Origin: Blasia pusilla | Taxonomy: Eukaryota | NCBI GenBank assembly: GCA_050084515.1 | Contig: CM114271.1 | Coordinates: 23,746,001-23,810,000 of the forward strand | Length of the DNA: 64,000 bases | Direction of reading: 5' to 3' | Shown here: positions 23,445-58,246 of the stretch, piece by piece | Numbering within the stretch: the first letter of the stretch is position 1 | How the letters are laid out: each line of letters opens with the position of its first letter | Position numbers and translations under genes: made by a program | The notes under the pieces: generated by a model | Told to the model about the DNA's origin: nothing | The model's database searches: none | Seen by the model: only the letters and a program-made list of their open reading frames with translations

Positions 23445-26400
23445 TCATCTGATGACTTCATTGTGGCTGTAATAGAGAACTTGAAATGTCTCCTACAAAG
23501 GCATATGTGCATGTGGGGAATCATACAAATTCCGTTGCTTCCATCCACAATATAGTTTTCCAACATGGAAACAGGCATTTATAGCAAGTTACAAAGATGA
23601 CCATATTGGCCCAAACTTGAAGATGCAGTTTTTTGTAAGAAACAAAACAAAATTTCTACGGTGCTGGTTGCCAGGATTTGAACCCACTCAAAACTGAATC
23701 CCCGGCTGAGCCTAACATTATTACATCAACCGAGTATCAGTCACAATATTCTGCTCATACCATGTGAACACATCACAGCCACGACACCCAAACCCTTGTG
23801 TCTACTTGCTCCCCTGTTCCATGAAAACAGAAGAAAACTAGTGACGTGAATAAAGATAAAGCGTCTTCACATGGAAATCAGAGTACTCACAGCTACAAGT
23901 TCACTTCATACAGAGCTGGAAAGATGGTTGTAAAATCTTGGTTTATTTCTCCAGATCGTCCATGGCCATCCGCTGCATTGTGGAAACAAACTTTAGGAAC
24001 CACCAGAGCAGCTATGACTGGAAAAGGACAGGAGATTAATGTAACAACTCAGACTAGATATTTATACGCACCTGTCGCTTGCTGATATAAGGTCGAATTG
24101 ACTCCCTATTTGAAGTACCATAGCTTGTCCTCTTTCCCATACTGGAGCCCCGCTTAAGACCATTAGAACGTTTTTCAGCCTCAAACTCTTTCCTAGTTTC
24201 TCGTCGTGACCCACTTTGCCAGACACTCCCAAAACTGGGTAACCATGAAGAGCTGTCTGGATAACTTCTCTCCACAATTTCCCCCCTCTGCTCTCTCTCA
24301 AGCTCAGCCCTTCGTTGCTCTGACCATGCTGCTCCTACTCTCTTTGGGTTCCTGAGCTTTGCTAACTTTCTCTCCTGAGTTCTAGATAGAGGCAATGAAT
24401 GACTAGGCAAGGACATCTGGGATCCATTTCCTAGAGAATTGCTCTTCTTCAGCCATGGTGGAAGAGCTCCTGTGTGCACGTTTCCCTCCCCAGGATTCAA
24501 AGACGACACTTGGATAGCCGTAAGATCTGTGTCAACCAAGAGATGGGCCAAGACAAGACTTAGTTTGCTTTTTGACACATTCTGACCAGGCCAACAAATC
24601 ATGTAAATCAAAAGCTCCTCAACTCCTCGAAGCATGTAGGATGTCTAATGGACTTGTTTGCTTATGAAGCGAGTCTCCAATTCTTCAAACTATGCAATAT
24701 GAATCCATCAGATGAAGTGAATGAGGTCACAAGGAAATACTTTGTCCAAGTTCCACGTCTGTTCGTTGAACAGTCTCTGGAGCTCCTCTAACGGATTGAT
24801 CCATCTGACTCTTGATGAGACCAGATACCTCCTCTCTGCTAACAATAGGCTGAGGGATTTTGTTCAGACCAGGTGTATCTAGCGTCTGCACAATAATCTC
24901 AAACTCTTAATCCTTAAAATCAAAGATATCTATCACAAAAGAATTGAGAGAATTCACGTGAGTGAGAGCTCAGACTCAAGTTGCCACAAGGCTTTCGTAT
25001 TAGCATGTGCACCAGTGAGCATGGAGCTAAGCACAGAACTACCGCCGACAAATCAAACGAAAATCAAGAATATGGTGTGAAAACTAACCCTTGACATGCC
25101 TCCAATCTTCCCATTACTCACCCGTGGAATCACTTGCAGAAGAATCTGTGAACTCATGACAGGCCTTGGCTCTGAAGATAATGCCAGGTTATTCAGAACT
25201 TGATTCATAGTACTGGAAGGTTGAAATTCACAATACCTCAGGCGAAACATCATGAAGAACTTGTTACTGACAAGGATTGCCCACATGTGCACTAACGAAT
25301 GACCCCCATGTACACGGATATCTGTCAAAGCAAGTTATTCACATATACATAGGAAAGCACTCTGGCTATTTTGATGTTCCTACTCACAAAGCAATGTAAC
25401 TCAACCCATGAATATGAAAGCAGGTCAGCGCAGACCTTCCCAAGCAGTAGACTGAAGTTCCGAGTGCATCTGATCAAGACTTTCTTGTGTATCCTGCATT
25501 AAACTTTTGCCCTTTTGCTGTGAGAAACCTGAGATATGTTGCTGTTGCAGGACTGGGGTTGCCATCGAGTGCAAGGTTTCCCGCGCAGATGCAGAAGCAT
25601 AGCGAACAGAGCCACTTGACAGATTACCATCCTGGAAACTTTGATCCGTAAGGACTGATAAAGGCTTAACAGCTAAAGAAGAACCAATTACAACAGAGTT
25701 GCTAATAACGTTTTCAGTAGAAGCCGCATCAGTAGAACTTCGGTCAGAGTGGATATTATTTATCTTGATGTACCCAGTGTCATCCACTCCTGCGAGCACT
25801 GGCGCCACCTTACAGGCCTCCTCCCACTGTCAGCCCAAATTACCACACGAATTGGCGTTAGAATACTGGCATCTTGATCTTGCCAAATGTTCCCACCGAA
25901 TGAAATCTCCTTAGATCGTTCGTTATAGGGGGTTCGTTCCAAAAAGCTCCAATTACGTATTCGGAGAAAGATGAACTTTCCCGGAAATTTTTATTCGTTC
26001 ATCACCAAATGAAATTCCAGACGCAAGGCTCTTATCTTTACATAGCAAACCCATGCTCATAGACGTATTACGATATGGCCGGGTAGAGTGCAGAGTACCT
26101 TCTCCAAAGAGTCTGCTGCGATAATATACAGATTTCGTTTCTCAATATCCCCTCCATTATCGAACCAAAACTTCTTCACGGCCTCCACGTGATGTTTGCT
26201 CGCAAGATGGCCAATCGCCTCTGCACTGTTGGATGAAGCCAAGCGAAACAAATCAACTATCCTTGGGATCGCAGCAGTGCTCTTGCATATGGTCTTAGGG
26301 TAAATGAAAATTAAAGTTTAACCGCTTGCCCACGATTCAAGTTTAACCGCTTGCAACACGATGCACTTTCCACAACTACGAAGGCAGAAGGGCGTGAAAA

Positions 26401-33662: not shown

Positions 33663-34116
33663 TGTCACGTCCTTTAGGATAGATCGGTGAGATCTAGTGG
33701 AGCGTCTTCAAGAGTAGTGGAGGACAGGCCTAGGAGGTCGAGGATGACCTGTTGAGGCCCTGGGACTCATTTGGGCTCATTTGGAACCATATTGAAGAAC
33801 TTACTATTTTAGGTTATTACCATTTTGAGTATATGATCGACTTCCTATTTTTGGTAAGTGGCCCTTGACCGCCTATATCAGGTCAAGAGCCAAAGAGGTG
33901 ACTTGGAAGAATAAGTTACCATGGAGAGAGCTTGGGAGAGGGGAGGGGTATATATCCCAAGGAGAGAGAGCTTGAGAGCTCATTCTCTCTTTGTTGAATC
34001 TCTTGGCATGAGGCGGCGGAGCTATGGTCCCTTGCCTTGTGAGTGTAACCTAAGCCTCTCATTAGGAGAGCAGATTTGGTTTGACATGAGAGAGAGAAAT
34101 TGGATCTTACTTTACA
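33663..34116 (+). repeat. Terminal repeat block A1
   Basis: Direct repeat of 43111-43628 apart from two small indels. TG...CA ends. Confidence 0.9.
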
Positions 34117-35663
34117 AAGAGAGAATGAGAGAATGAGAGAAAGAGAGAATGCGAGAATGAGAGAGTGAGAGAGCTTCATGGGGGAGCTCGCTGGTCACTT
34201 GCTGTTTTTGCAGGTTGGGGACCGTGTTCCCCGTTCAACGGCTCATGGGAGTGCTCATTGGAGCAAGGGTTGCTTGGATTGTTCTTTGCATTTGCCGATT
34301 TTTCGTGTGGAAGAGTGGCGCGCGGAAGCGCTGCCGAATTTTTGATAAGGATTGAGTATGGGGGCGTGTTGCCCCATGCCGGTGCTTTTGGGAGCACCAT
34401 GTCGCTTACTGATTTGTATTTTTACAGGTTTTACATTTTTGTTGGGAGGAATCAGCGCGGAAGCGTTGCCGAATGTTGGGTAGAAGAAAGAGACATTGGA
34501 CTTTACGACAATCCCTGTCAATTTTTACTGGAATGTTTGATTCCAAATATTTTTTGATACTAGCGTAGATCGTGAAGCTATACACGCTGTGCAACAAACA
34601 ATACACAATTTGGAGTTGCGAGCAAAAAGTTATGGTCAATCTTGCAAAACTTCCATTGCTACACGATTTTTAGGGTTAAATTGTGCAAACCCTAAACCAG
34701 CCGCCACACCGGCGGCGGCCGTCGCCGTCATAGTCATCGTCAACCATCAACGGTCAACTTTCATCGTCGATGGTCAACCATCACCGTCAATGGTCCACCG
34801 TCCGTTGTCCACCCTTGGTTGCCATTGCCGCCGTTACGGAGTGGAGGGTCTTCCACAACGTTCATTGATTCTCGGACTTGCGTCGCTATCACGTACTTTT
34901 TTTGGCCGCCACCGTCATCAACCTGTGATGGCATATGACCTATTGTTATAGTGTTTGAGTTTTGAGTTCCAGCTGCTATGTTTTGATTGGTAGCCGGTCA
35001 ACGACGACCGGGTACTCTGCCGTGACGCCCGTAGCCGCAACGCGCCGCCGATTGCCGCGTCGTGCCGCTCGTGGCCGCACTGCACCGTCTTGATCATGGA
35101 GCCGCTTCCGCATTGTGGAGCTGAGTGTGGGTTTATTGTTGATTGAGGAGGGTATGACGCCGAGTGCCGCATCCCATCATCGAGGGCCGTTCCGTGCCGC
35201 CTGCAACGCCGCACCGTTCCGCTGGAATTGCACCGTCTATCGAGGATTTTTTAGCAACGTCAGTACGGGAGGAGTATGACTTGCTGATTGGAGGAGTTTT
35301 CTCCACGATCGAGTTGGGGTCGAGATTCGTAGTTCCTGAGGAGCGACATCAACATGTGTTCAGGTTACCCATTCTGGTCCTTTACCCTGCACGTGTGAGG
35401 GATTCTGGGATTTGGGTAGTTTATTTGAGGATATTGGATGTGTGGATGCTGAGAGCATCATTTATGTATGTGATTTAGGGGACATAGACTTGTGTGTGAT
35501 GTCCGGAGTTGAGGGTAGGTTGTCGATGAGATGATAGCCTTGTCGATTTGCCGCACCACACCGCTTATTGCCGCACGTTACATGTCTCAGGGAGGGAGAG
35601 TGTAGATTGAGTGCCGCATGTTTGGGATGAGTGATTGAGGGATTACTCGCGAGGCAAGATTGA

Positions 35664-38569: not shown

Positions 38570-39490
38570 GAGGGTATTCGAGTATTAGATCTCTTTGGAG
38601 GGTTTAGCACTGGGTTAGCTGCTGTTTTGCAGGCAAGAGTGCGAGTACAACAGTACATGTATGTGGAGAGTGATGATGTTGCAAGGCGCGTCTCACTACG
38701 ACATGTGGCGCAGTTACGCCTACGTTTTCCCGACTTATTGTCTGGTCAGCAAGACATGGGTTGAGTTCCCTACCGAGGGATATTTCGTTGTTGGGGGCGC
38801 AAGACTTAGAGCGGGTAGGGACCATTGATTTGGTCATTTCCGGTTGGCCATGTCAAGGCCAATCGAGTGCTGGACGAGGTAGCGGGTTGGTCGACACTCG
38901 GTCCAGGTTGTTTTGGGAGATGTTGAGGGTCTTACGACGGTGGCGGGGAGCACCGCCTCGTTCTTGACCTACATTCGGAGAATGTGCCGATCTTAGAGAC
39001 TCAGTCACGGGTGGTGACGAGTGGTCATCATGTGCGTGCGTGGATCGGCCCAGCAGTTGTTCTTGATGCGGCGAGTGTAGGTTCTAGAGCCCATCGCCCC
39101 GCGTCTATGATGGACCAACTTGGTGCCCCATGCGGTGTTGGGCGTATGGGAGAGTGGGCGCCCCTCCCATTTGTTAGTGGATTCCATTCTAGATCCAGTC
39201 GCCGATCACAAACAAGTGAGGCACGATGATCGACCACCGCTGGATCGTGGTCAATGTCAGGTAGGCCGCGAGCGGCCTTGCCCACATTTGTGAGTTTTCC
39301 GCTTCCTACTCATACAAGGAGGTCGGGCCTCGCTTGGTTTGGGATGACCATGTCCATCGGTTGGTGGAGCCCAACGCCGATGAGAGAGAGCCCAGAGTGA
39401 CGGCAAGATCGGTGTTAGAGGCATCACGACGCTATGTCTTGGGTCAGCGATGGACTGAATCGCTTGACATGGATCCTCGGCTTGGGAGTG
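38570..39490 (+). pseudogene. DNMT3-like C5 cytosine DNA methyltransferase domain within pol (frameshifted)
   Basis: Motif I VLDLFGG..TG; II YVE; III DI; IV DLVISGWPCQGQS; V G.GL...RSRLFWE; VI ENV; VIII AHRP; IX-X EPNADERE...LGQ.MD. Confidence 0.9.
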
Positions 39491-39799: not shown

Positions 39800-41230
39800 T
39801 GGAGACTTGAGAGCCGATATGGGCCCTAAGTTGAAAGGAGGAGAGCGGCGCGGATACATTAGTTCCTCACGAGTTATAGGAGCTGCTTTCTATTTAGCAT
39901 GGAGGATTTGGGTACGCTAAAGGGACCGGGGGTCCGCATTGAGTTGTCGAGTGATACGCCGATCTTCCGACGACCCTACAGGTACAGTGATATTGAGAGG
40001 GGTGTGATTCAGAGTAGGAGCCAGGACTTGGGTGAGCGGGACTAGTGGAGATGTCCCATGGGGAGTATCTCCATTTCATGCCCGCCGAGAAGGACGTGCA
40101 TGGCAACTGGACGGATAGGCGGATGTGTGGGGATTACCAACCTATCAATCGACAGACGAAGTCCAATAGGTATGGCATGCCTACCCCTGAGGAGATCTTT
40201 GATGCAATTGGTCATGCAAAGGTCTTCAGTTCATTGGATTTGCGAGCCGGATACCATCAACGCCTATCAGATTGGAGGACAAGCGTAAGACGGCATTTTG
40301 GGGCATCGATCCTCACGGGAAGGATTGTTTGTACTAGTGGCGGTTCTTACCATTTGGGTTAAAAAATGCCCCGGCTGAGTTTCAAAGGGTCATGGATAGG
40401 ATCTTGGTTGGTCTGGATTTTGCTAGGTGTTATATTGATGATATCATAGTCTTTAGCGCCACGGTTGAGGAGCATGAGCGATAGCTAGAGGAGGTGTTTC
40501 GACGATCGCAATTACATGGGCTGAAGCTACATCCAGGCAAGTGCAAGTTCTTCTATGACCAAATTGAGTACTTGGGTCATACGATATACCCCAAGGGGCC
40601 TTGGTGTTCAACAAACGAAGGTAGAGGCTATCTCACGCATTCCATGCCCTACACATGTGAGCCAGGTTCGCGCATTCATGGGATTGGTGAACTTCTATCG
40701 GCGATATGTCAAGGGATTCAGTTTGATTGCGAAGCCACTGACCTTGCTGACCAAGGTGGATCATGAGTGGCACTGGGGGGATAAGCAGGAGCAAGCATTT
40801 TAGTTGACGTCTGCGCCCATCTTGAGGAGACCGATCAGGGGGCGTCCTTTCTAGTTGCACACAGATTGGAGCATGTTGGGCCTTGGATCAGTGCTCACCC
40901 AGCATGATGATGAGGAAAGAGAGTTCGTGGTGGCTTACACTAGCCGCTCAAACAACGCTGTAGTACACCTCGTATGAGGGTGAGTGCTTGGCTGCGGTGT
41001 GGGCTGTCGCGTATTTCAAGTGTTACTTATTCGGCAACCCCTTTACCATCATCACTGATCATCAACCACTGAATTGGTTGATGGAGTCCGACAAGCTTAC
41101 TAGAAAGCTTGCGAGATGGGCTCTGTTGTTGCAGGAATATGATTTTCAGGTGGTACATAAACGTGGGACGCTCAACCAAGATGCAGATGGGTTGAGTTGT
41201 AACCCATGCCCGAGTCAGCGAGATGCGACT
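39800..41230 (+). pseudogene. Gypsy reverse transcriptase and RNase H
   Basis: [66 protein letters not shown]. Confidence 0.93.
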
Positions 41231-41539: not shown

Positions 41540-42794
41540 CGACTAGTGCAAAGATGCCCACGAGGAGTTGGGTCACTTTGGGATGAAGCGAACGCATGCC
41601 TTGCTCCAGATTCGATATTGGTGGCAAGGTATGCAGATCGGCGTTCAACGCTTTGTTGCTAGGTGCATGGTGTGTGATTGCGTCCGAGCATCGTTCAATG
41701 CTCGACTCCGATTGCATCCATTACCGATCATGGGCTTAGGGTATAGATGGAGTTTGGATTTTGCAAGACCTTTACCTTTGACAGAGCGTCAGAGTCGTTA
41801 TGTGTTGGTGATGGTCGAGCACTTCTCGAAGTGGATCGAGTTGGTTGCATTGCGTGACAAAGCAAGTGAGGGAGTAGCTTATGCCTTCGTTGACAGAGTG
41901 CTAAGTCATTATGGCGCACCGGCTGAGGTGTTGTCAGACCAGGGTGCCGAGTTTTGGGGTGAGTTCCAAGCCTTTTGTGATCAAGCGCTGATCGACCACC
42001 GCATGACTTCGCAAGATCATCCCGAGGCGGATGGATTAGCAGAGAGTGTTGTGTAGACGGTGAAGAGGGGTTTACGCAAGTATGGCTTACAGAGAGGTCA
42101 CCTACGAGATTGGGACCTCCTGTTGCCATGGTTGGCGATGGGATACAGATTCAGCAAGCAGACATCCTTAGCGTCTTTTTCACCGTACTTGCTACTTTAT
42201 GGCCAAGAGCGAGATTCACCAGCGGCCATTCGTCGAGATGCTGGTGAGGTGCTGGACCTTGATGACCCAGATGTATGGGTGCGAGCATGTTCTCAGAGGG
42301 CTGAGTTATTTCAGAGAGTGATGCCCATGGCGTTCGAGAACTTGGCGATTGTGCAACATCGGGATACGTTGAGATATGCGACTATTCGGGGTGGTGGTTA
42401 TCGACCAATTATCCAGAAGTTTCATCAAGGAGATTACGTCTACTTGCAGCAGACGGCACCGACGAGGTTGGATGTGACTGCAGGACGCACTATCCTGAGA
42501 GTGCATGACGTTTTGCCATCCGGTGTTCTTTTGCTAGAGGGACGCGATGGTATGGTATGGAAGAACCATGTGCGTAATTGTGCACCATATCACCTTCCTA
42601 ACATTGATAGTACATTGGATCCGAGCTTAGCAGTAGTTCCTGCAGGCTTGCGTTGTATGTTGTGTGGTTATGTCCGTGGTGCGGCCACGATGCTAGTCTA
42701 CGATGGTTGTTCGAGAGGTTGGCATATGGCATGTCTGACCCCCCCTCTCACTAGGGTTCCAAGGGGACGATGGATGTGTACCAGATGTACATAG
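41540..42794 (+). pseudogene. DDE integrase with C-terminal PHD finger (42654-42791)
   Basis: HHCC zinc finger (H..LGH...CMVC); WSLDF / LSDQG / GLAE triad; C4HC3 pattern CMLC...(C>Y)DGC...WHMAC...WMCTRC. Confidence 0.92.
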
Positions 42795-42971: not shown

Positions 42972-42982
42972 AGGGGGGGCGA
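42972..42982 (+). other. Polypurine tract
   Basis: agggggggcga lies immediately before block B1. The equivalent aggggggcgg precedes the B-like block of the minus-strand copy (55920-55929). Confidence 0.7.
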
Positions 42983-42983
42983 T

Positions 42984-43108
42984 TGGAGATATTTGGTACT
43001 TCTTGTCTTGTTGTTTGGATGCCATGAGTTAGTATGGGATCGTGCGTGTTTGTGTGTGTGTTCGGTGACAACGATGTATGTTGTGTAGCGATGTGTATAC
43101 GCACGACA
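42984..43108 (+). repeat. Terminal repeat block B1
   Basis: Direct repeat of 43630-43754. TG...CA ends. Confidence 0.9.
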
Positions 43109-43110
43109 GT

Positions 43111-43754
43111 TGTCATGTCCTTTAGGATAGATCGGTGAGATCTAGTAGAGCGTCTTCAAGAGTAGTGGAGGACATGCCTAGGAGGTCGAGGATGACTTGC
43201 TGAGGCCCCGAGAAACCTGAGAGAGCAGGTTTCCCCTTCGTTTTGGCTCATTTGGAGCCATATTGAAGAACTTACTATTTTAGGCTATTACCATTTTGAG
43301 TATATGATCGACTTTCTATTTTTGGTAAGTGGCCCTTGACCTCCTACATCAGGTCAAGAGCCAAAGAGGTGACTTGGAAGAATAGGTTACCATGGAGAGA
43401 GCTTGGGAGAGGGGAGGGGTATATATCCCAAGGAGAGAGAGCTTGAGAGCTCATTCTCTCTTTGTTGAATCTCTTGGCATGAGGCGGCGGACCTATGGTC
43501 CCTTGTCTTGTGAGTGTAACCCAAGCTTCTCATTAGGAGAGTGGGTTTGGTTTGACATGAGAGAGAGTACACACCTTTGAGAGCTATGGTGTGAGATTGT
43601 GTAGAAAGAGTTTGGATCTTACTTTACATTGGAGATATTTGGTACTTCTTGTCTCGTTGTTTGGATACAATGAGTTAGCATGGGATCATGCGTGTTTATG
43701 TGTGTGTTCGGTGACAACGATGTATGTTGTGTAGCGATGTATATGCGCACGACA
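43111..43754 (+). repeat. Terminal blocks A2 (43111-43628) and B2 (43629-43754)
   Basis: A2 repeats 33663-34116 and B2 repeats 42983-43108. Confidence 0.9.
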
Positions 43755-46198
43755 CGTGAGAGAACAGGTTTCCCCTTCGTTTCGGCTCATTTGGAGCCAT
43801 ATTGAAGAACTTACTATTTTAGATAAGTACTATTTTGAGTATATGATCAACTTTATATTTTTGGCAAGTGACCCTTCACCTCCTACATCAGGTCAAGAGC
43901 CAAGGAAGTACTTGGGACCAGGTCATCATGATGAGAGCTTGGGAGAGGGGAGGGGTATACCTCAAGGAGAGAGAGCTTGAGAGCTCAATTCTCTTTTTGT
44001 TGAACCTCTTGGCATGAGGCGGCGGAGCCATGGTCTTGTTTGCCTTGTGTGTGTAACCCAAGTCTCTCATTAGGAGAGTGGGTTTGGTTTGACATTAAGA
44101 GAGACATGTGAGAGTGCACACATGTGAGAACTATGGTGTTGTGAGAGAGATTGGATCTTATTTTACAAAGAGAGAATGAGTGAATGATAAAGCTTCATGG
44201 GGGAGCTCGCTGGTTGCTTGATGTTTGGTGCAGGTTGGGGGACCGTATTCCTCGCTTCATGGCTTATGGGAGTGCTCACCGGAGCAAGAGTCGTGCGAGT
44301 TTGATGTTTTGCTTTGCTGATTTTTTTTGTAGGGGAGAATGACACGCGGAAGCGCTTCCGAATTTTCGATAGGAATTGAGTATGGGGACGGATTGCTCCA
44401 TGCCGGTGCTCTCAAGAGCACCATGTAACTTGCTGATTTGTTTTCTCACACGTTTTATATTTTTTTGGGAGAAATCAGCGCGGAAGCGCTACCAAATTTT
44501 GTGTAGGAGAAAGAGACGTTGGGCTTTACGACCATCCCCATAAGTTCTTACTAGAATGTCCAATTCAAAATATCTTTTGATAGTGTTGTAGATCATGAAG
44601 TTATGCACACTCTACTATAGATAATGCACGATTTGGAGTTGCGAACAAAACGTTACGGTCAATCTTGCAAAATTTCCATTGCTACGTGATTTTTAGGGTT
44701 AAATTGTTCAAACCCTAAATGACCCGCCGCCCCGGCGGCCCGTCGCCGTCAAAGGCACCGTCACCATCAACAATCAACGTTCCACCATCACCATCAATGG
44801 TCAACCATCACCGTCAACGGTTCACCTTCCACCGTCGGCCGCCACCGCCGCCTAGTGTTGCTTAGAGCCGCGTTCGGCCGTTGTCCACCCTTGGTTGCCA
44901 TTACCGCCACTACAGAGTGGAGGGTCTTCCACGATAGCCGTTATTTCTCTAACTTGCGCCGCCACCACGTACTTTGTTTTGGCCCCCACCGTCATTGCAG
45001 TTTCGTCATCAACCAGTGATGGCAGGTGACCTCGGGTTATGGTGTTTGAGTTTTTATTTCATGGTGCTATGTTGTGATTGGTAGCCTCTTGACGATGATC
45101 AAGTACTTTGCCGTAACGCCCATAGCCACAATGCGCCACTGATTGCCGCCTCGTGCCGCTCGTGGCCGCACCGCACTGTCTCGATCGCGGAGCCGCTCCT
45201 TCACTAAGGAGCAGAGTGTGTGAATTGTTGATTGAGGAGGGTATGCCGCTGAGTGCCATATCCCATTCTCCAGTGCCGTGCCGTTTGTAGCCATTCCATG
45301 CCGCCAATGCCGCACCGGACTGTTAGACCTGCACTTCACATCAAGGAGGTTTGAGCAATGTCAGTACGAGAGCAGTTTGACTTGCTGATTGGAGGAGTTA
45401 TCTTCATGACCGAGTTGGGGTCGAGATTTGCAGTTCCCGAGGAGCGACATCAACATCATTTTCAGGTTATCCATTCTAGTCTCTTACCCTGTACGTGTGA
45501 GAGATTTCTGGATATTGGGAAGTTATTTGAGATATTGGGTTTCGTGGTGATTGAGAGCATCGATGATGTATGGGTTTAGGGGACATAGACGTATGTGGGA
45601 TATCCAGAGTTGAGGATGGTTTATCGATGAGACGATAGATCAGTTGATTTGCCGCACCATGGATGATGTAAGGGTTTAGGGGACATAAACTTGTGTGGGA
45701 TGTCTAGAGTTGAGGATGGTTTGTCGATGAGATGATAGATCAGTTGATTTTCTGCACCATACTCCTTGTTGCCACACAACACACATCTCAGTGAGAGAGT
45801 GTAGATTGAGTGTCGCATGTTTAGTTTTAGTGATTGAGGGATTACTTGCGAGATTGAGAGTGATCATGTGAGAGGGGCACGAGGGCCATCACAACGTCCT
45901 TTCAAGATTTTGAGAGGCGAGGTAGTGGACCTGAGAGTAGCTCTAGAGGATTTACTTGGAGTGGTGCGAGGTTTCGAGGGTCTCCACGTGAGAGACTACC
46001 TCGATCATCTTATGTGTCATCTTCAAACAAGAGGAAGCATGTAGAGGAGTGTGTTAGTGATCCACCGTACACATTGAGTGGTCCTACCAGTTGGGCATAC
46101 GAGATGGACGACCGGGTTAGAGGATCGCGTAGGTTTTCGGGTGCTGCAGATACTCTAGAGCTACATGACTTCATTGTGGAGTTTAGGAGTTGGTGTGA

Positions 46199-49100
46199 CT
46201 CACACACATACCACCATGGAGAATAAAATTTGCAATGAGAGATTGAGTGGAGGCTAGTCCTCTTCTCAATTATATAGGGTATGTACAAGAAACCCTAACC
46301 CTACCCTTAACCATAGTCTCGAGCTAGACTAACTTCGATTAACTAACCCTAGTTAAGATAATCGTGCTTAACTAACTAACCAAGATTAAGCTTCCCTACT
46401 TCGTGTGAGTACCAAATATAGCAGTTCACGTGTCTCATAAGCTTGACTCTAATTCAATCTTCAATACTCCCCCTCAAGCTCATATCGATATCTGTAACGC
46501 CTAAATCCTTTCTAAACATCTCAAACTTATCTCTAGACAATGCCTTTGTAAAGATGTCAGCAATTTGTTGATCTGTACATATATACAGAAGATCAATTTC
46601 TCCTACAAGCACTTTCTCTCTGGATAAATGATAGTGCACCTCAACATGCTTTGTACGAGCATGAAACACAGGGTTATTAGCAAGCTTGATGCTACTAACA
46701 TTGTCTGCATATATTACACTAGGTCCTAAGTTACTAACACCAATCTTAACAAAGTAATCGATGAAGCCACACCGTCTCACATGGTGCATTGGTTGCTCAT
46801 CTGCACTCAGCCTCTATTGAAGATAAAGCAAATGTAGGTTGCTTCTTTGAAGCCCAACTTATAGCTTCCCAAAGTAAAGGAATATCCAGATGTGGAATGT
46901 CGATTAGACACACTTCTTGCCCAATCAGCATCTGTGAATTCCTATAATTGAAAACTCGGAGAAGGTTCAAATTGAAGCTCGAATTGAATAGAGAATTTCA
47001 CATACTGCATAATCCTCCTCACAACATCAAGGTGAGATTTTCGAGGTGCTTGCATAAACTGGCTCACTAGGCCAACAACATAGCTCAAATCTGGTTTGGT
47101 TATTGTTAGATAGATCAAACTTCTAACCATGTGTCTTTACATATTAGAATCTGCAAGCAGTTCTCCTTCATCCACTCTTAGCTTCACGCTGTGGTCTAAT
47201 GGTGTAGAGATTGGCTTACAAGCCGTCATACCATATTTTGAAAGCATATGAAGAGCATATTGTTGTTGTAGTAACCACATGCTCTCTCCAACCTTGATAA
47301 ACTCAATACTAAGGAAGTACTCGAGTTCTCCCAAATCCTTCATATAAAATTCTGCTTGTAACTTAAGCTTGACTCATTGTACAATTTCTTCAGTATTCCC
47401 AGTAATCAAGAGATCGTCAACATACAACACAATGAGAATTGTATGATCTTGTCCTCTCGAGACATATAACGAGGAGTTAAAATCATATACCCTAAAACCT
47501 AACTCTTGTAAGATGTATGTAATCTTGCCATACAAGCTCTTGGAGCTTATTTGAGCCCGTATAGAGCTTTCTTCAACTTGTACACGCGAAATGGAAACTT
47601 AGGATGCTCGTATCCAGGTGGTTGAGTCATATATACCTCCTCGTATAGATCTTCATTCAAGAAAGCATTCTTGATGTCCATATGATGTAATCTTCACTTC
47701 TTACATACTACAACTGCAACCACTGTTCTCATAGTCACAATCTTTGCAACAAAGCTAAATGTTTCCTTATAATCAATACCATATTGTTGTGCATAGCCCT
47801 TAGCCATCAATCTCGCTTTGTATGTGTTAATTGTACCATCTTGATTGCGCTTGATTTTATAAACCCATTTGCAACCAATAGATTCATAGATGAATCTATT
47901 AATTGGATATGTATTTCTACTTGATCTACGAAGTTGTTGTTAAGAGGTAGATGCCTCTAACACCTAATTCGAGCTCTGACTAGTGTCAACAGACTGAATA
48001 CGTACTCTTGCCATCCATGGACTCACAGATTTAACTGATGAATCTAGGACCTCTCCTAATCCTGCACTAGTACTTGGGAAAGTTGAAGACAATGTCTGTT
48101 GGTTTATACTCATATTTTTCCCCTCAACAGACAAGTTTAGAGGTGGAATAGGCTACAATGGAGCATACCATAACTTATGCTCATCAAAGGCAACATCCCA
48201 ACTAAAAATACGCTGCCTAGAGGATGGAATGTAGCACTTATACCCCTTAGTTCCATCAACATAGCCAATGAAGATACATCTTTCAGACTTGGGGTCTAAT
48301 TTCTGACGTCTCTCAGAAGGAACAAGAGCATAACAAATACAGCCAAATCCTTTCAAGAAGGAAAAATCAGGTTTACTTCCTGTGAAGACTTCGAATGGAG
48401 TTTTATCATGAACTCTTGCTGTTGGAGTTCGGTTGATTAAGAAGACTGTACATGCTACAACCTTTGCCCAATATACCTTAGGCATGTTCTTCTCATTCAG
48501 CATAGCTCGTGCCGCTTCAATAATATGTCGATTCTTCCTTTCAACCACTCCATTTTGCTGTGGAGTGTAACGGCAAGTCACTTGACGTTGGATGCCATTC
48601 TGACGTAAATAGTCATCAAACTCTATTGAAAGATACTCTCCTCCTCCATCACAACGCAATTTGAGAATGTGTTGTCGAATCTACTTGTCTAGTAGAACTC
48701 TAAATGTTTGGAACACTGAGAATACCTCTGACTTGGCTTTCAGAAAGTATACCCATATATACCTAGAGAAGTCATCAATAAATGAAACAAAGTAGTGAAA
48801 ACCACTAAGGCTATTTTGTGATGCTGTCCACACTTCACCGTGGATCAACTCAAATATCTTGGATGCTCTTCCACCTTGCTTTGGAAAAGGAAATCTAGCT
48901 TGTTTTCCTAATAGGCAAGCAGAACATACCTCTAACGTAGTAGGACTCGCTAATTTAGGGAGTCATATTACTATATTAGATGATGAAAGACTCACTAAAC
49001 TTTGAAGATTCATATGTCCAATTATTTTATGCTACATATTTAGATCTATGACATGTTGGTCGGTTTGATCATACATTGATGTTTGAATCTCTGGCATAGA

Positions 49101-50834
49101 AATGTCTAATTTGAACTTTCTGCCAGATCTAGTTCTTTTGGCTATCGTAGTCTGGTCATCCATTGTTTCAATGAAACAACCATCTGCGTTAAAATTCACT
49201 TGATAACCGTGTTCTACTATTTGTCCTACAGAGATTAGATTTCTTGCAATCGTAGGGACATAAAGAGCATTTCCAAGAGCACAAAGACCATCTGATGTTA
49301 TTGGAACTTTACCGATATGCGTGATATGATGTTGAGTGCCTCTTCATCCATATGCTTGATATCCACCACGACCACAGAAGTTTCTGCCACGACCCCCGCC
49401 TCTGTTTGATCCATAACTTGCAAATAGCGCACTCTCTTGCAGACTAGATGAGCTACCGCTACATACTAGGCGCATCTCTTCACTGATCAATACATGAATT
49501 GACTCTTGAAAGGTTGGATACTTCTTTCTCATAGAGATAGAAGTCTGAAAGGATTTATAATCCTTTGGAAGACCTTAAAGAGTGAAAAAAATCAGATCAT
49601 CTTCTAATTTCACTCCAATGCTATTCAATTGATCAACAATATGACTAATACTCAAAATATAATCATTGATGCCCTATGATCCTTTCCTCACTTCGTTCAA
49701 TTGCTGTTTGAATTGAAGCTTTATGGACTTTGTAGATGTCTGGGAACAGCTTTTCCAATGCATCCCATGTCTCCTTTGGAGTATCAACATCTTGAATGTG
49801 ACCTATTATTGGCGAACTGATCGTTATTCAAATGTAGTGGATTACTTGCCTTGCGCGTTCGTTCCAAGCGCGAACATTCAAGTTTGTTGAGTCACCTTCT
49901 GACTAAGCCTCATCACTTGTGACAAGCTCCCATAATTCTTGACCCATGACAAATTGTTTCATGCAAAACTTCCAGACATTGTAATTCTGTTTGTCTAGCT
50001 TCTCGCTTGTGATTGCTGTTGAGGAATACTCCATGATAAACGATTTCACTCACAAAAACATAATTTCAGGATTTCTACTACTCCAACTGAAGCATAGACC
50101 ACTCCTACACAGAAATCAACCTGAAATTTGCCAAAATTGATCAACTGTATGAAAGAACTAGTTGAAATTGGCTTGTAGAGACCAAACTACACACTAATTG
50201 CACTTTCTTACACTGAAATTGCTATTGCAGGAGCTTAGAGTGTCCGAATCAAGCGATTTTAGGTGCGTTGGAAAGCTCTCAACGAGCTCTACAAGAAGGC
50301 TAGAACCAACTTTTAGCATTGTTCTAGCTGAAGCGGACTCAGACGGCTGAATCGGCCGGGAAAGCCCTAAAAATTGCCTCCAAAGTTTTATCACCGTCAA
50401 AGCTCCACCTGAAATTTGCACCGAATTTCTTCTCCCAATCTGAATTTTTTCCTTCTCTTGCCTCTCTTCTCTTTCCAAACACCAAGAATTTCAAGTGATG
50501 TTCTCCTTCCGCTCTGATATTATGTAGAAAACTGTTACACAAGCATAATTGGTGGTAAACGGCTCTCTCACACATACACCACCATGGAGAACAAAATTTG
50601 AAATGAGAGATTGAGTGGAGGTTGGTCCTCTTCTCAATTCTATAGGGTATGTACAAGAAACCATAATCCTACCCTTAACCATAGTCTCGAGTTAGACTAA
50701 CTGTGATTAACTAATCATAGTTAAGATAATCGTGCTTAACTAACTAACCAAGATTAAGCTTCCCTACTTTGTGTGAGTACCAAATGTAGCAGTTCATAGA
50801 TCTCATGAGCTTGACTGTAACTCAATCTTCAATA
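46199..50834 (-). mobile_element. Degenerate Ty1/Copia LTR retrotransposon; 5' LTR 50523-50834, 3' LTR 46199-46466 (end deleted), PBS remnant 50511-50522
   Basis: Integrase RCDGGGEY...YTPQQNGVVERKNR and SERCIFIGY lies upstream of RT (YKARL.AKGY.Q, VLYVDDLLI) and RNase H (NPVFHARTKHVEVHYH, QIADIFTKAL). PPT GAGGGGGAG. PBS TAATATCAGAGC resembles tRNA-iMet TGGTATCAGAGC. Confidence 0.93.
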
Positions 50835-51864
50835 GTTATGACGTTGGATGGTACGCCCGCCGAGGTTTCCTGGCTGGCCGCTACGCTATCTGAGCGTGGA
50901 GTTGGAGTTCCTACATCATGTTCAGAGGTGATTGTAGAGGAGGTGATGGACATGCCCTTGGAGTTGATGCTTGGGCCATCCACGTCAGATTCATGGCAGG
51001 CTGCAGCTGCTAGGATGACAGAGATGCCCGCTAAACCCGCCATAGAGCGTGCCATGGCTTCTCTAGGCGTTGTTTTGTTGGATAACCGGGGAGAGGTCTT
51101 TTAGTTGGTGAATCCAAGAGGTAGAGCTTTTAGTTTGCACCGCGTCTTGTTGGATTCAAGAGCGCAACCCCTAATGTTGGGGAAAGCGTCATTCAGAGGA
51201 TTGGGCTTGACGATAGCCGATGTGGAGCGTTGTCCATTTCGGATACAGACATCCTTGGGTGGAGCGAGTACCACACAGTATATCACCCGACAAGAGGTTG
51301 TGGTGAGGATTCGCTCGGGACATCCTACAGATGAGTTTGTGGTGCAAGCCAAGACAATAGTGACTGATGTAGAGTCCTACGACGTCTTGGTTGGTAGAGC
51401 AATGTTATACCCAATGGGGTTTTCCCTGGATTACTGAGAGGAGTCAGTGTCCTACAGACTAGAATGGCAGTCAAGTGATGAGAGCCTTAGCTCATTACCC
51501 ATTCGATTCACAGATGTAGTGATCGAGCAACGGCCAGGACAGATGGCGACCTTAGCAATATTTTGCAGTGCCATCACTTGGCCTAGTGATTTGATTGAGG
51601 AACATGTCCATGCAAAGGATACTCTCGTTCTTGACATTTCTAGAGGGGTGTCATGGTATCCGCATCAGTCCATCCATGGAGGAGAGGTGCCACTTTGGGG
51701 CTCGACTGAGGAGCTTCGACGCTTAGCCACTTAGCATGTGCAGAACGCGTAGAGCGAGACGTTTGCACTAGAGTGTGACGGGTCAGAGGAACCCTAGGTA
51801 GGCAAGAGTGCTCTTATGACCCCTTTGGACACCGCCCCGATTGTGTGGTGCATCCCAAAGGAGT

Positions 51865-52760
51865 GTATTCGGGTGTTGGATCTCTTTGGAGGGATCAACA
51901 CTGGATCAACAATGTGGAGATTGATGATGTTGCGAGGCGCGCTTCACTTCACCATGTGATGCATTTATGCTTCCATTTTTCCCACTTGTTGTCTGCGTCC
52001 GCCATTCAGGGTTACCAAAGTTCCCTATCGAGGGACATTTAATTGTTGGGGACGTAGGACTTGGAGCGGGTAGGGACCATAGACTTGGTCATTACTGGTT
52101 GGTCATGTCAAGGCCAGTTGAGTGCTGGATGGGGTAGCGGATTAGTTGACTCTTGGTCTAGGTTGTTTTGGGAGATGTTGCCGATCTTGCGACACTTGCA
52201 AAAGCATCAGTCTCGTCCTCCCGTATACATTCTGGAGAATGTACCGATTTTGAGCGATTCGAGGTGTCGTGTGATGACAAGTGCACATCAAGTGCGCACA
52301 TGGATCAGCCCGGTAGTTTTGTTGGATACGGCGAGTGTGAGTTCACAAGCACATCGCCCACGTCTTTGGTGGAACAACTTGGTACCATACGAGGTGTTGC
52401 CGAGGGCATATGCGAGAGTGGAGCGCCCCTCCAATTTGTTGGTGGATTCTATACTGGATCCGGGCCGTCGATCACACGCAGTGAGGCTAGATGATCGACC
52501 GTCATTGATTGTGGTCAACAGGATTGGCACGCCACGAGCAACCTTTCCCACATTGGTGAGTTTTCCCTCTTCCTATGCATTCAAGGAGGCCGTACCTGGC
52601 TTGGTTTGGGATGACCAAGAACAAAGGTTGGTGGAGCCTAACGCCGATGAGCGAGAGCAAGCGATGGGATTCCCCACAGGAGTGACGGTATTACCGTCAC
52701 TATCATAGGCATCACAACATCATGTCTTGGGTCAGGCGATGGACATGAACTGCTTGACAT
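51865..52760 (+). pseudogene. DNMT3-like methyltransferase domain, second copy
   Basis: VLDLFGGINTG, DLVITGWSCQGQ, YILENVP, SQAHRPRLWWNNL, EPNADEREQAMGFPTGVT, VLGQAMDMNCL. Confidence 0.9.
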
Positions 52761-55700
52761 GGATTTTCAGCTTAGGAGTAGATGAGCAACGTCGTTTGAG
52801 GATGCAACAGATCACAGCTATTGTGTTGGTGAGCCCCATGCCTACCGAGACTGTTGAGGCAGTGGCTGGGGGCAAGACTCGAGGAGATCGACACACTAGG
52901 GGTGATCGGGAGAGACACCCTTGGACTTCTTGGGATGTTTTGCAAGTACGTTAGGAGATGATAGCCAGAGCATCGAGCGTGGTTGCGGGTACTACATTGG
53001 AGATGAGAGTTCTATTGTCCAAGATAGGGTTGCACCATAGCAACCATCAACATCCACGTCGGAGAGTCCTACCGTAGTCACGATGGAGACTTGGGAGCCA
53101 GATATGGGCCCTAAGTTTACAGGAGGAGAGCGGCGTCGGATACACTAGTTCCTTAGGAGTTATAGGAGTTGTTTTGCATTAAGTATGCATGATTTGGGTA
53201 CGTTGAAGGGTCCATGGATCCACATTGAGTTGTTAAGTGACACGCCAATCTTTTGATGACCCTATAGGTATATGTGACATGGAAAGTGCTCTGATTCATA
53301 GTAGGAGCCAAGACTTGGTTGGAGTAGGACTAGTGGACATGTCGCATGGAGAGTATGCATGTGCCACTGTCATGCCCACCAAGAAGGATGTGCATGCCAA
53401 TTGGACGGATAGGCGGATGTGTGGAGATTACTGACTTATCAATCGGCACATAAATTTTGATAGTATGCCATGCCCAACCTTGAGGAGATCTTTGATGCCA
53501 TTGGGCATGCAAAGGTCTTCAATTTATTGGATTTGTGAGCCGGATACCATCGATTGTCTATCAGATTGGAGCACATGCAGAAGACAACATTTTGGGGCAT
53601 CGATCCTCACGGGAAAGATTGTTTGTACCAATGGCGGATCTTACCATTTGGGTTAAAGAACGCCCCGGCTGAGTTTCAGAGGGTCATGGATAGGATCTTG
53701 GCAGGTTTGGATTTTTCTAGGTATTATATTGATGACATCATAGTCTTTAGCGCCACGGTGGAGGAGCATGAGCGACATCTAGAGGAGATGTTTCGACGAT
53801 TGCAGTTATATGGGTTTCATCTAGGCAATTGCAAGTTCTTCTACGACCTCATTGAGTACTTGGGTCATACGATATACCTAGGGGGCCTTGGTGTGCAACA
53901 GACGAAGGTAAAGGCTATTTCACGCATTCCACACCCTATAGATGTGAGTCAAGTTCGTGCATTCATGGGATTGGTGAACTTCTATTGATGGTACGTCAAG
54001 GGTTTCGGTTTGATCGCGAAGCCGCTAACTTTGCTGACCAAGGTGGACTAGGAGTGGCACTTGGGGGATGAGCGGGAGAGATCATTTCAGATGCTCAAGG
54101 ACATATTGACGTCCGTGCCTATATTGAGGAGACCGATCAAGGGACGTCCTTTCCAGTTGCATACCGATTGGAGCATGTTGGGGCTTGGAGCCGTGCTTAC
54201 CTAGCATAATGATGATGGTAAAGAGTTCGTGGTGGCTTACGCTAGTCGCTCAAACAACGCTGAAGAGGCGAAGTATAGCTCGTATGAGGATGAGTGCTTG
54301 GCTGCAGTGTGGGCTGTCGTATATTTCAAATGTTATCTATTCAGCAATCCCTTTACCATCATTATTGATCATCAACCACTTAAGTGGTTGATGGAGTCCG
54401 ACAAGCTTTCAGGGAAGCTTGCGAGGTGGGATCTTTTGTTGTAGGAATAAATATGACTTCCAAGTGGTGCATAGACCTGAGACGCTCAACCGAGATGCAA
54501 ATGGTTTGAGCCGTACCCCATGCCGGAGTCAACAAGATGCGGTTGGAGCTCGTTGGCATGGTGAGAGTGATGAGGAGTTGGTTCCGAGATGGCATGCGTT
54601 AGCCTATTTGGGCTTATTGGCTGTGGAGAACCAGATTTCCACGACTTTGATGGCGAGGTCTGATGGAGAGTCCTTAGATCCACAGGCCGATGCGGAGACG
54701 ACAGGTGGCCGAGACATTTACAACGATGGAGTGGTCTTGGAGTACTTGCGTACTGGCAGCGTTGCGAGCACAGTGGGTATAGAGAGCGGGATCGAATCCT
54801 AGAGCGAGCCGGACGGTTTCGGTGGGAGGGGACACATGTGTTGCAAGTGTGGAAGGATGGTAGAGTGTGTGTAGTGCCTCATCCTTTGTAGAGAGCACGT
54901 TTGGTGCGTCATGCCCACAAGGAGTTGGGTCATTTTGGAGTAAAGTGGACGTACAACTTGCTCCAGATTCAGTATTGGTGGCGAGACATGTAGGTTGGCG
55001 TTCAGTAGTCTGTTACCAGATGCATGGTGTGTGATCAAGTCCGAGCATCTTTCAATGCTCTGACTCCACAATTGCATCCACTTCCGATCATGGGTTTAGG
55101 TTATAGATGGAGTTTAGATTTTGTAGGACCTTTGCCTTTGACGGAGCGTCATAGTCGTTATGTGTTGGTGATGGTCGAGCACTTCTCGAAGTGGATAGAT
55201 TTGGTTGCATTGCCTGACAAAGCGAGTGAGGGAGTAGCGTATGCCTTCCTAGATGAGTGCTGAGTCATTATGGCGCACTAGCTGAGGTGATGGTGAGGTG
55301 TTGAACCTTGATGACCCTCATGTATGGATGCGAGCATGTTCTCCGAGGGCTGAATTGTTTTGGAGAGTGATGCCCATGGCATTTGAGAACTTGACGATTG
55401 CGCAACATCGGGATATATTGATGTATGCGACTATTCAGGGAGGTGGTTATCGACCTACTATCCGAAGGTTTCATTAGGAAGACTATGTCTACTTGCAGCA
55501 GACGGCATCCACGACCTTGGATGTGACTGCAAGGCGCACCATCTTGAGAGTGCGTGAGATTTTTCCATCTGGTGTTCTCTTATTGGAGGGACATTATGGT
55601 ATGGTTTGGAAGGACCATGTGCGTAACTACGCACCATGTCATCTTCCGAACATTGACGGTACAGTTGATCCGAGCTTAGCAGTAGTTCCTGCAAAGAACT

Positions 55701-55782
55701 TCAAACAAGAACTTCAATGGAACCTGAACATGGAGATAACTCGACATACAAGAATATGCTACCGTCGTGGCTCTCCAGTATT

Positions 55783-56805
55783 TATCGTGCGCGTATATAT
55801 CGCTACATAGCATACATCGCTGGTAACATCTACACCACACAACACCGATCTTCCCCACACATGGGTCAATCCACACATGTACAAAAATCAACTCATACAT
55901 ATACATGGAGATCACACAACCGCCCCCCTAGCTGGCAGTTGGATCCCCCCCACTCTAGATAGAAAATATCACATCTTTCTGACATGACCTACTACCGTAT
56001 ACACATCTCGGACACATCCATCGTCTCGTGGGAACCACATCAAGAGGGGGGGTTGGACATGACATATGCCACCCTCGAGAACAACCATCACATACCAACA
56101 TGGTGGTTGCATCCCTTGCAGATCCGCACAACATACACCTCAAGCCTGCAGGTACCACTGCCACGCTCGGATCCACCATCCCATCTACGTTCGGAAGATG
56201 AAATGGCGTACAATTTCGCACATGATCCTTCCAAACCATACCATCCCATCCCTCCAACATGAGGACTCTGATCGGTAATACCTCGCGCACACGTAGGATC
56301 GTGCGCCCTGCAGTGACTCTAGCGTCGTGGGTGCCGCCTGCTGTAAATACACGTAATCTCCAAGATGAAACCTCCTAATCCCTGGACGGTAACCTCCTCC
56401 ACGAATGGTCGCGTACCTCAATGTATCTCTATGCTGGGCAATAGATAAGTTCTCAAAGGCTATAGGCATAACTCTACGAGAAATCTCCGCCCTCTGAGAA
56501 CATGCTTGTACCCACACATCTCGATCATCAAGATCTAACACCTCTGCCATGTCACGTCGAATTGCTGGTGGTAAATCTGGCTCTCTCCCAAAGAGCAAAA
56601 AGTACGGTGAAAATGACGCCAAGGATGTCTGCCGACTAAAGCGATAACCCATAGCCAACCATGGCAACTGTAGGTCCCACTCCCTCAATTGTCCCCGGTG
56701 CAAGCCATACTTGCGCAATCCTCTCTTCATCGTATGTTCCACTCTCTTCGCCAACCCATCCGCCTCAGGATGACCTCTGGACGTGGTGCGGTGATCTATC
56801 AGCGC
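55783..56805 (-). mobile_element. 3' fragment of a third, related Gypsy copy: integrase C-terminus, intact PHD finger, PPT, B-like terminus
   Basis: IDHRTTSRGHPEADGLA...; PHD CMLC..CDGC..WHMSC..WMCPRC; PPT at 55920-55929; end ...gcgcacgata at 55783. Confidence 0.88.
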
Positions 56806-58246
56806 TGTCACATTTGAATAGCCGATAGGCCGAGATCTATCGTGGATAGGGCGTAGGAGCCAGCGGACTATCTTGAGTGTAACTTTGTTCCACGTTGTCG
56901 GATGAGGTTGAGGATAGGTCCATTGTGTTAGGAACCTCATTTTTATAACTTTCATGTTGAGGTCTTTCACAGCCGGGTGACTTGTTGACCAGGTCACCCG
57001 CCCCTGGTAACCTGTGCCCGCAGGTTACCAAGGGGAGGGTTATTTTTAGGGGAAGAGCCAAAAATTTTAGCTCTTCCCAACTCTATATAAGAGAGGAAGA
57101 TGGCTTTCCTAAGCCATCTTTCTCATGTTGGGCCGTTGGAGCACCTCCCTTGCATGTGTGTGAGATAGGACTAGGGTGCTAGCGTCCGGATTCCTTGATA
57201 GCACAAGGTGGACGAGGCTCGATATGTCGATATACAGGGTTTTGGACCGAGAACTACGGAGGAGAGTCTGAGATACGGTGGTGATTCACACAGCGAAGCC
57301 CACATTGAAGGTGGTCTTTGAATTGTCTGAGCGTATTGAGCTCAACATGAGTGAGGAGCAGGTAGTGACCGCTAGATTTTCTCGAGAGTCGACGAGCGAC
57401 GGTGACCCCACAGGTGCCACAGCGAGCACCAGTACCACGGGAGCGGGCCAGTGTGCCCAGAGAGCAAGGCACGTACCGTGAGCCTATGAGGCAATGACCC
57501 GTACCTACATATGTTGCCCAGCAGGGATCGATGTGGTCTTGTTGGACGTGTGGAGGGGCCCATAGGCAGAGAGACTGCCCACATCATGGGAGAGGACCAC
57601 TAGCGCCTCTGATTGCTCACGAGCCACAGAGGATGGCCCCACCATAGCACCAGTGTGACTATTGCCACAGATATGGTCACACTAGGGATAGATGTTTTGA
57701 CCTTCGCCAAGGGGCACGTCCAGAGGTAGGCTGAGGGCCTAGGGGCGGTCGTCCTGGAGGAGGTCGGGGAGTTCTCCCTGGACGTGGTGGTAGAGGACCA
57801 CCACCAGCCAGAGGAGATGGAGCAAAAGCACCAAAGCCGGCACTTCTCGAGTAGAAGCTGGAGCTGGTAAAATCTGGAGTCACACTAGCTGCTCGCAGCT
57901 CCGTGCCTTCCCTAAGCTGCATCATCGTCATGGCAGCAATCCTCTGCTCCAACTGATCGATGCATGAGAGAAGCTTCCGGCTCTGGTGCTCTTGCTCCAT
58001 CTCCTCTGGCTGGTGGTGGTCCTCTATCACCACGTCCAAGAAGAACTCCCCGACCTCCTCCAGGACGACCGCCCCCAGGCCCTTGGCCTACCTGTGGACG
58101 TGCCCCTCGGCGAAGGTCAAAACATCTATCCCTAGTGTGACCATATTTGTGACAATAGTCACACTGGTGCTGTGATGGGGCCATCCTCTATGGCTCCTAC
58201 GCCTTATCCACGATAGATCTCGCCTATCGGCTACTCATATCTGACA
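56806..58246. mobile_element. Fold-back composite of two converging 5' fragments (terminus plus gag) of a related Gypsy subfamily
   Basis: Inverted ~56-bp termini (TGTCACAtttgaatagccgataggccgagatctatcgtgg versus the reverse complement of 58191-58246). Inner inverted arms 57621-57840 and 57977-58196 encode the CCHC knuckle CDYCH.YGHTRDRC. TATA-like tatataag at ~57085. Confidence 0.8.

Follow-up and report, generated by a model that had tools for sequence, protein, structure and literature searches.

What does a plant homeodomain (PHD) finger contribute when it closes the pol polyprotein of a retrotransposon? The question is raised by a stretch of 64,000 nucleotides from the genome of Blasia pusilla (contig CM114271.1, positions 23,746,001 to 23,810,000 of the forward strand; hereafter the window), in which self-comparison and tblastn with the full-length relative P0017 recovered three related Ty3/gypsy copies (A, B, and C). 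Their pol region is arranged in the order DNMT3-like methylase, reverse transcriptase (RT), RNase H, integrase, and PHD finger. The finger is a selectively maintained C-terminal module of the integrase in a Ty3/gypsy lineage of green plants and algae that carries a DNMT3-like methylase, and the copies in the window are fossils of this lineage.

In copy A, an open frame of 245 codons (42057-42794, forward strand) runs from the integrase core into the finger and ends with ...GLRCMLCGYVRGAATMLVYDGCSRGWHMACLTPPLTRVPRGRWMCTRCT, followed by a stop codon. The spacing C-x2-C-x9-[Y]-x2-C-x4-H-x2-C-x12-C-x2-C represents a C4HC3 pattern in which the third ligand has changed from Cys to Tyr (codon TAC), and Pfam PF00628 matches residues 200-244 with 33.2 bits (E 5.1e-08), which is above the curated cut-off of 24 bits. 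The finger of copy C, on the opposite strand, has retained all ligands and reaches 42.3 bits (E 7.7e-11). Both observations agree with a preliminary description of the locus, which had read from the DNA letters a PHD finger with a single Cys-to-Tyr change at the end of pol in the inner copy and a ligand-intact finger in a third copy on the minus strand. Copy C nevertheless carries changes at conserved sites of the finger (CL to CP, and G to R within the P-x-G-x-W motif) and a tail of 15 residues after the last Cys, where copy A has a T and the stop codon. A six-frame scan of the 64 kb that allowed any single ligand to be altered recovered the C4HC3 motif at two loci only, those of copies A and C. 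Copy B lacks the finger, as its homology to copy A stops at 55693 (equivalent to 42644 in copy A), 10 bases short of it. Judged by its ligands, its profile score, and its predicted fold, the finger in the window is a genuine PHD finger.

According to the structural model, the finger is located directly after the C-terminal domain (CTD) of the integrase, which is the chromodomain site of chromoviruses. The AlphaFold2 prediction for the copy C segment (mean predicted local distance difference test score [pLDDT] 80.5) comprises three SH3-like strands at residues 9-32, an ill-defined linker (block pLDDT 55-74), and the finger at residues 61-108 (block pLDDT 85-96). Foldseek aligns the modelled finger with PHD structures (among them those of BAZ2A/B, DPF2/3, ATXR5, UHRF1, and BHC80) at a root-mean-square deviation (rmsd) of 1.0-1.5 Å over 48-51 columns and returns 42 PDB chains at E <= 0.001. 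The same layout is found in chromoviruses such as MAGGY and Tf1, where a small histone-tail reader directly follows the GPY/F SH3-like module of the integrase at the end of pol. Their reader is a chromodomain, whereas here it is a PHD finger, and the mark that is read is probably different; the likeness is one of position. Pfam scans detected no chromodomain (PF00385) in the open reading frames (ORFs) of the window or in 30 scanned relatives, and the earlier wording that the PHD finger stands "in place of a chromodomain" is fair with respect to its position after the SH3-like CTD.

The finger is conserved far beyond the window. The relatives considered here are 43 longer proteins that were retrieved with the C-terminal 245 residues of the integrase; the named proteins closest to the window integrase belong to Marchantia polymorpha (75% identity) and Calypogeia fissa. 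A precomputed Pfam PHD domain is present in 39 of the 43 proteins, and the full ligand pattern in 36. Among the four relatives that lack the Pfam domain, P0022 and P0027 end before the finger, P0043 ends at the first C-x2-C, and P0039 is degenerate in this region. An alignment of 38 sequences (the copy C segment and 37 relatives) shows no variation at the eight ligands or at P96, and at least 90% of the rows agree at D77, G82, P90, and W100; since the rows were picked for having the motif, the constancy of the ligands is in part a product of that choice. The integrase CTD contains a near-invariant motif of its own, C-A-P-C-H-L-P (42570-42590 on the forward strand and 56200-56220 on the reverse strand; P38, C39, H40, and L41 conserved in at least 90%), in which the second Cys of CAPCH is mutated in both window copies (CAPYH in copy A).

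An exhaustive search with the 120-residue segment comprising CTD and PHD, in a database clustered at 50% identity, yielded 5429 representatives at E <= 0.001, of which 610 were found at 1e-10 and 6 at 1e-30. The best 150 clusters were classified by architecture. CTD and finger are collinear in 108 of them. In 24, which are multi-PHD proteins, the match is restricted to the finger; a further 16 are fragments that break off within the match, and 2 are ambiguous. All ligands are present in 93 of the 108 collinear clusters, and the finger is terminal in 32 and followed by more than 25 further residues in 76. Between copies A and C, the ratio of nonsynonymous to synonymous substitution rates (dN/dS) is 0.20 over the 46 codons of the PHD finger and 0.14 over the preceding 60 codons, values that are close to each other and stem from a small sample. 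This pattern of sequence conservation indicates that the PHD finger is kept under purifying selection across a large clade. Its retention across subfamilies, which had been claimed from the two fossil copies in the window, is supported more strongly by the database relatives than by those copies. The taxonomic range rests on named matches, which come from Marchantia, Calypogeia, Sphagnum, Klebsormidium, Pleodorina, and Tetrabaena.

In a quick maximum-likelihood tree (a quick search only, midpoint-rooted, with 36 of the 38 aligned rows after removal of two that had under half of the columns filled), the 17 sequences with a terminal PHD finger, including that of the window, fall on one side of a branch with a support of 99 in the Shimodaira-Hasegawa-like approximate likelihood ratio test (SH-aLRT). 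This window clade lacks the tail that follows the finger in the long-tailed relatives. Most relatives (P0019-P0045 and P0054) have 100-500 residues after the PHD finger, with a conserved pattern L.GR...G.v.Y.G that has no match in Pfam. A G-patch domain (PF01585) is located between methylase and integrase in P0114 and is also listed for P0020. The nearest cluster in the ESM Atlas (score 0.95) is an integrase of the type H2C2, rve, and PHD with 80 members, among which Mollusca is the most frequent of the known phyla, suggesting that comparable fusions of integrase and PHD finger may exist in animals.

The lineage that retains the finger also carries a methylase. In copies A and B, a C5 DNA methyltransferase domain (PF00145) precedes RT, RNase H, and integrase on the same strand. 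The PDB matches of the window domain are weak (E 3e-4 to 9e-4) and fall to DNMT3A or DNMT3B in 18 of 18 cases, and its relatives are found in Marchantia, Calypogeia, and Sphagnum. In 16 long pol proteins among the other relatives, RNase H and integrase are separated by some 600 residues that are homologous from protein to protein. Pfam detects PF00145 in 7 of these 16 proteins; the N-terminal methylase of P0017 matches all 16 stretches (E 2e-18 to 2e-44), and so does a profile built from six of the PF00145-positive stretches. A class of chlorophyte-type relatives without a methylase, which had been considered from the Pfam results alone, was rejected, because the stretch between RNase H and integrase matches the methylase in every one of the long pol proteins.

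Collinear CTD and PHD are present in 144 of the 201 proteins compared. Where the CTD starts at residue 1100 or later, the methylase is found in all 16 proteins with this arrangement; where it starts at residue 700 or later, the methylase is found in 24 of 35, and the other 11 are not judgeable, ten of them being terminal-PHD models that start at the RT and one (P0185) starting inside the RT with a short gap. Among these 35 proteins, 24 of which are judgeable, no relative demonstrably has the finger and lacks the methylase. The site of the methylase differs between the lineages: it precedes RT in the window copies and in P0017, whereas the long-tailed relatives (including P0054, P0109, P0114, P0128, P0151, and P0182) have it between RNase H and integrase, about 430-550 residues ahead of the CTD. 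The methylase may have moved within pol, or there may have been two captures.

A methylase in the pol region of a gypsy element, as in the window, has been described for KnitGypsy-Dnmt3 of Klebsormidium nitens, a Ty3/gypsy element whose pol includes an intronless methylase of the Dnmt3 type (de Mendoza et al. 2018, PMC5890265). That element differs from the copies in the window in the DIRS-like repeats given in a legend of the same paper, as opposed to the direct long terminal repeats (LTRs) found here, and in its host, a charophyte alga as opposed to the liverwort-like host of the window. A PHD finger is nowhere mentioned in the main text of PMC5890265 or, as text, in its three supplements (figures apart). 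Two proteins of K. nitens are nonetheless among the relatives of the window integrase (P0039, 45% identity; P0041, 43% identity), and both have remnants of a PHD finger. Gypsy elements with a methylase are also present in liverworts (Marchantia and Calypogeia) and Sphagnum (P0047, P0051, P0055, and P0056), in addition to the window itself (33663-58200); no paper describing such elements of bryophytes was found in a literature search.

By sequence and by predicted fold, the closest solved relatives of the finger are readers of the unmodified N-terminus of histone H3. The best sequence match in the PDB is the first PHD finger of KDM5B (E 1.1e-12), followed by MLL3, PHF12, the first PHD finger of KDM5A, CHD4, and DPF2/DPF3; further matches include BHC80 (PHF21A), ATXR5, UHRF1, BAZ2A/B, and AIRE. 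Of these, KDM5B PHD1, BHC80, and AIRE are readers of the unmodified H3 tail. The leading Foldseek matches are BAZ2B, DPF2, UHRF1, ATXR5 with H3 (40% identity, rmsd 1.0 Å), DPF3, and BAZ2A with an unmodified H3K4 peptide, and the entry titles for BAZ2A, UHRF1, and ATXR5 name complexes with the unmodified H3 tail. No finger of ING, BPTF, or TAF3 is among the best 60 of the 81 PDB sequence matches. The Asp of the C-D-x-C motif and the P-x-G-x-W motif, which presumably contact R2 and A1 of H3, are represented in the family by the highly conserved D77, P96, and W100; the G-to-R change of copy C falls within the latter motif.

For active members of the lineage, we favour, with modest confidence and by analogy to the chromodomain, the reading that the finger tethers the complex of integrase and cDNA to nucleosomes via the H3 tail. 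Its ligand would be the N-terminal H3 tail of the nucleosome, most likely with lysine 4 unmethylated or else whatever the state of K4, and this binding would hold the integrase-cDNA complex on chromatin. Such tethering would bias the landing of new copies away from promoters marked by H3K4me3. In function, the finger would then correspond to the chromovirus chromodomain, which has been shown to guide insertions into chromatin bearing H3K9me (Gao et al. 2008, as cited in PMC6673714). Tethering is the reading best supported by the data, because all architectures observed have the finger on the integrase CTD, even where pol differs in other respects such as the position of the methylase.

Several points weigh against it. 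The residues before Cys1 and before strand beta1, whose acidic counterparts in KDM5B, BAZ2A, BHC80, and AIRE contact unmethylated K4, are neutral or basic in the window clade (net charge 0 to +3 at 12 positions in 17 sequences; AGLRC, GDARRGY); the long-tailed relatives keep acidic residues at the same 12 positions (net charge mostly -5 to 0). One of the Foldseek matches, 3sow, is the UHRF1 finger bound to H3K4me3, which implies that a finger of this class may be indifferent to the methylation state of K4. Both fingers in the window are damaged, by the loss of the third Cys in copy A and by the CL-to-CP and G-to-R changes in copy C. The element cluster adjoins ordinary genes, which in this one window lends no support to a targeting of heterochromatin, and the literature searched contained no binding or integration data for this clade. 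Binding of the H3 tail is a reasonable inference; the specificity for H3K4me0 is uncertain in the window clade because the acidic patch that contacts K4 is missing.

Another reading makes the finger a partner of the methylase of the element. Like the ADD domain, it would read unmethylated H3K4 and license or direct cytosine methylation on the new copy or in its neighbourhood, a possibility that appears doubtful on balance. The ADD domain of animal DNMT3A, DNMT3B, and DNMT3L is a PHD-type zinc module that reads H3K4me0 and belongs to the same gene product as the DNMT3 catalytic domain. The preliminary description had proposed that the finger may stand in for it, and part of the evidence agrees: pol contains a methylase whose PDB matches, although weak, are exclusively DNMT3A/B, the finger belongs to the class of unmodified-H3 readers, both domains occur together in 16 of the 16 relatives long enough to judge, and no relative has been shown to have the finger alone. 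The other part does not, and the 11 relatives that could not be judged for the methylase reduce the weight of the pairing. The finger is always joined to the integrase CTD and never to the methylase, which occupies two different positions in pol. Whereas the ADD domain is a composite of a GATA-like and a PHD module located beside the methylase, the window finger is a plain PHD finger of 45 residues that closes pol at a distance of over 1000 residues from the methylase, and Pfam detects no ADD_DNMT3 domain. In other Ty3/gypsy elements, pol is cleaved by a protease, and such cleavage would place the two domains of the window clade on different proteins. Moreover, the acidic residues that would contact K4me0 are not conserved in the window clade.

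It is also conceivable, though unlikely, that the finger is not a histone reader at all and instead serves as a zinc-stabilised module for the multimerisation of integrase, the binding of a host protein, or the binding of nucleic acids. PHD-class folds have non-histone partners, and the Foldseek matches include the TTD-PHD module of UHRF1 in complex with a Stella peptide. The window clade has not only lost the acidic patch but has gained basic residues around the groove that usually holds the peptide. By contrast, the features that recognise the H3 N-terminus in this class, i.e., the Asp of the CD motif and P-x-G-x-W, are conserved, and all of the closest solved relatives are binders of histone tails.

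That the finger reads H3K4me3 and sends insertions to active promoters is very unlikely. Some PHD fingers do read this mark, and genes are found close to the element cluster. Readers of H3K4me3, such as BPTF and ING2, have a cage Trp two positions before the zinc-binding His; the residue at this position is Gly in at least 90% of the 38 aligned sequences and never aromatic, and no reader of the cage type is among the best 60 PDB sequence matches or the Foldseek matches listed. A chance pattern of Cys and His in a decayed frame, for which the degenerate state of the copies might speak, is ruled out for all practical purposes by the Pfam scores of the two fingers (E 5e-08 and 8e-11), more than 100 clusters, and the dN/dS of 0.20.

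PHD fingers in transposable elements (TEs) are already known, and the window clade adds a further case. They are encoded by many retrotransposons (PMC6673714) and have been reported from long interspersed nuclear elements (LINEs) of the CR1 type (Kapitonov and Jurka 2003) and from Chlamys, a group of Penelope-like elements, and the finger has been called a "common accessory domain" of Chlamydomonas TEs (PMC8557442). Gypsy-7a_cRei of Chlamydomonas is drawn with a PHD finger (legend of Fig. 6 in PMC9940879), and a survey of PHD-TE fusions in 172 eukaryote genomes lists PHD and Chromo as the readers that occur most frequently in fusions with retrotransposon domains (bioRxiv 10.1101/2021.11.30.470311). 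These elements share the finger with the window clade, whereas neither the clade itself nor a fixed order of CTD and PHD nor a pairing with a methylase is described in the passages of these sources that were available. REM1 of Chlamydomonas reinhardtii (Perez-Alegre et al. 2005), a Ty3/gypsy element of the green lineage, is cited for a PHD finger (PMC6673714, PMC8557442). It is described as a chromovirus whose truncated integrase, encoded in the reverse frame, keeps GPY/F and a chromodomain (PMC2774666), and this architecture, as far as it is documented there, differs from that of the window elements. In the literature searched, which consisted mostly of open full text and makes the result provisional, neither a test of binding or targeting by a retrotransposon PHD finger nor an account of the present clade, or of its combination of an integrase-borne finger with a methylase, was found.

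The three copies in the window (Table 1) are 75-84% identical to each other, and their LTRs are 77-90% identical; all copies are old, degenerate, and dead. Tandem duplications are found in and just before the downstream LTR of copy A (42982-43108 vs. 43628-43754, 94% identity; 43212-43628 vs. 43751-44167, 84% identity). Copy B is interrupted by an insertion of low GC content and about 4.1 kb (at about 46466-50567). The insertion contains an ORF (48153-48680, reverse strand) with a retroviral SH3-like integrase domain (PF25597, E 6e-30) and probably represents a Copia-type element on the opposite strand. Copies B and C meet tail to tail across a gap (55694-56002). Copy B lacks a 3' LTR as well as the finger, and copy C lacks anything downstream of pol; no RT or DNMT was detected upstream of its integrase with P0017 in tblastn or by self-comparison. 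The approximately 300 bases between the two copies have no match elsewhere in the window by self-comparison. The further LTR near the start of the window is followed by an inverted LTR fragment (5823-6782; entire region, 3737-6884) without an adjoining pol. The element cluster lies a few kilobases from ordinary genes, and the neighbourhood, as judged from this one window, mixes TE copies with genes.

Table 1. Features of the window, in order of position (position 1 is the first nucleotide of the window; tildes denote approximate values).
Feature	Position	Strand	Evidence and remarks
AMP-binding enzyme	112-2043 and 9832-12883		PF00501, E 1e-57; flanks repeated ~11 kb apart
Further LTR of the same family	3737-5825		~85% identical to 33663-35655
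Aspartic-protease-like TAXi_N ORF	19145-20059	-	
CCDC84 homologue	24054-24644	-	
LTR upstream of copy A	33663-35655	+	77-90% identical to downstream LTR
Copy A, internal part	35.6-42.8 kb	+	Many frameshifts and stops
Copy A, remnant of C5 DNA methyltransferase (motif IV region, PCQ), upstream of RT	38746-38940	+	Pfam PF00145, E 1.9e-09; tblastn
Copy A, RT and RNase H, frameshifted	39887-41221	+	Pfam, tblastn
Copy A, integrase (H2C2 zinc domain, catalytic core, and following region)	41547-42473	+	Pfam PF17921, PF00665; tblastn with P0017
Copy A, SH3-like CTD of integrase and linker of ~17 residues before PHD finger	42474-42653	+	Fold from copy C model
Copy A, PHD finger closing pol	42654-42791	+	7/8 zinc ligands; stop codon 42792-42794
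LTR downstream of copy A	43111-45659	+	Internal tandem duplications; copy B internal region directly after
Copy B, overall	45666-55693	+	Directly 3' of copy A downstream LTR
Copy B, 5' part	45666-46466	+	Split from copy B pol by inserted Copia-like sequence
Copy B, pol (DNMT, RT, RNase H, integrase)	50835-55693	+	79-84% identical to copy A
Copy B, DNMT3-like methyltransferase domain	51860-52774	+	tblastn
Copy C, PHD finger	56003-56137	-	8/8 zinc ligands
Copy C, C-terminal half of integrase (SH3-like domain and linker)	56138-56806	-	One frameshift near 56320

Because the window copies are dead, the value of these observations lies in the family rather than in the locus. Integrase-borne chromatin readers are among the few known routes by which retrotransposons pick their landing site, and to our knowledge, only the chromodomain has been experimentally tested among them. 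A PHD finger at the position of the chromodomain in more than 100 diverged clusters provides a second, independent case in which reader-guided insertion can be tested. The part that most deserves attention is the consistent pairing of finger and methylase across the clade. One speculative and rather improbable interpretation is that a fixed pair, a methylase of the DNMT3 type and, on the integrase, a PHD finger of the unmodified-H3 class, rebuilds the logic of animal DNMT3 in an ancient clade of the green lineage: the element would read chromatin that is unmethylated at H3K4, insert there, and methylate itself or its surroundings, and the pair would have persisted in land plants (liverworts and Sphagnum) after a move of the methylase. 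Irrespective of this scenario, a clade that carries its own DNMT3-like methylase could show how the reading of histone marks, insertion, and DNA methylation are coupled.

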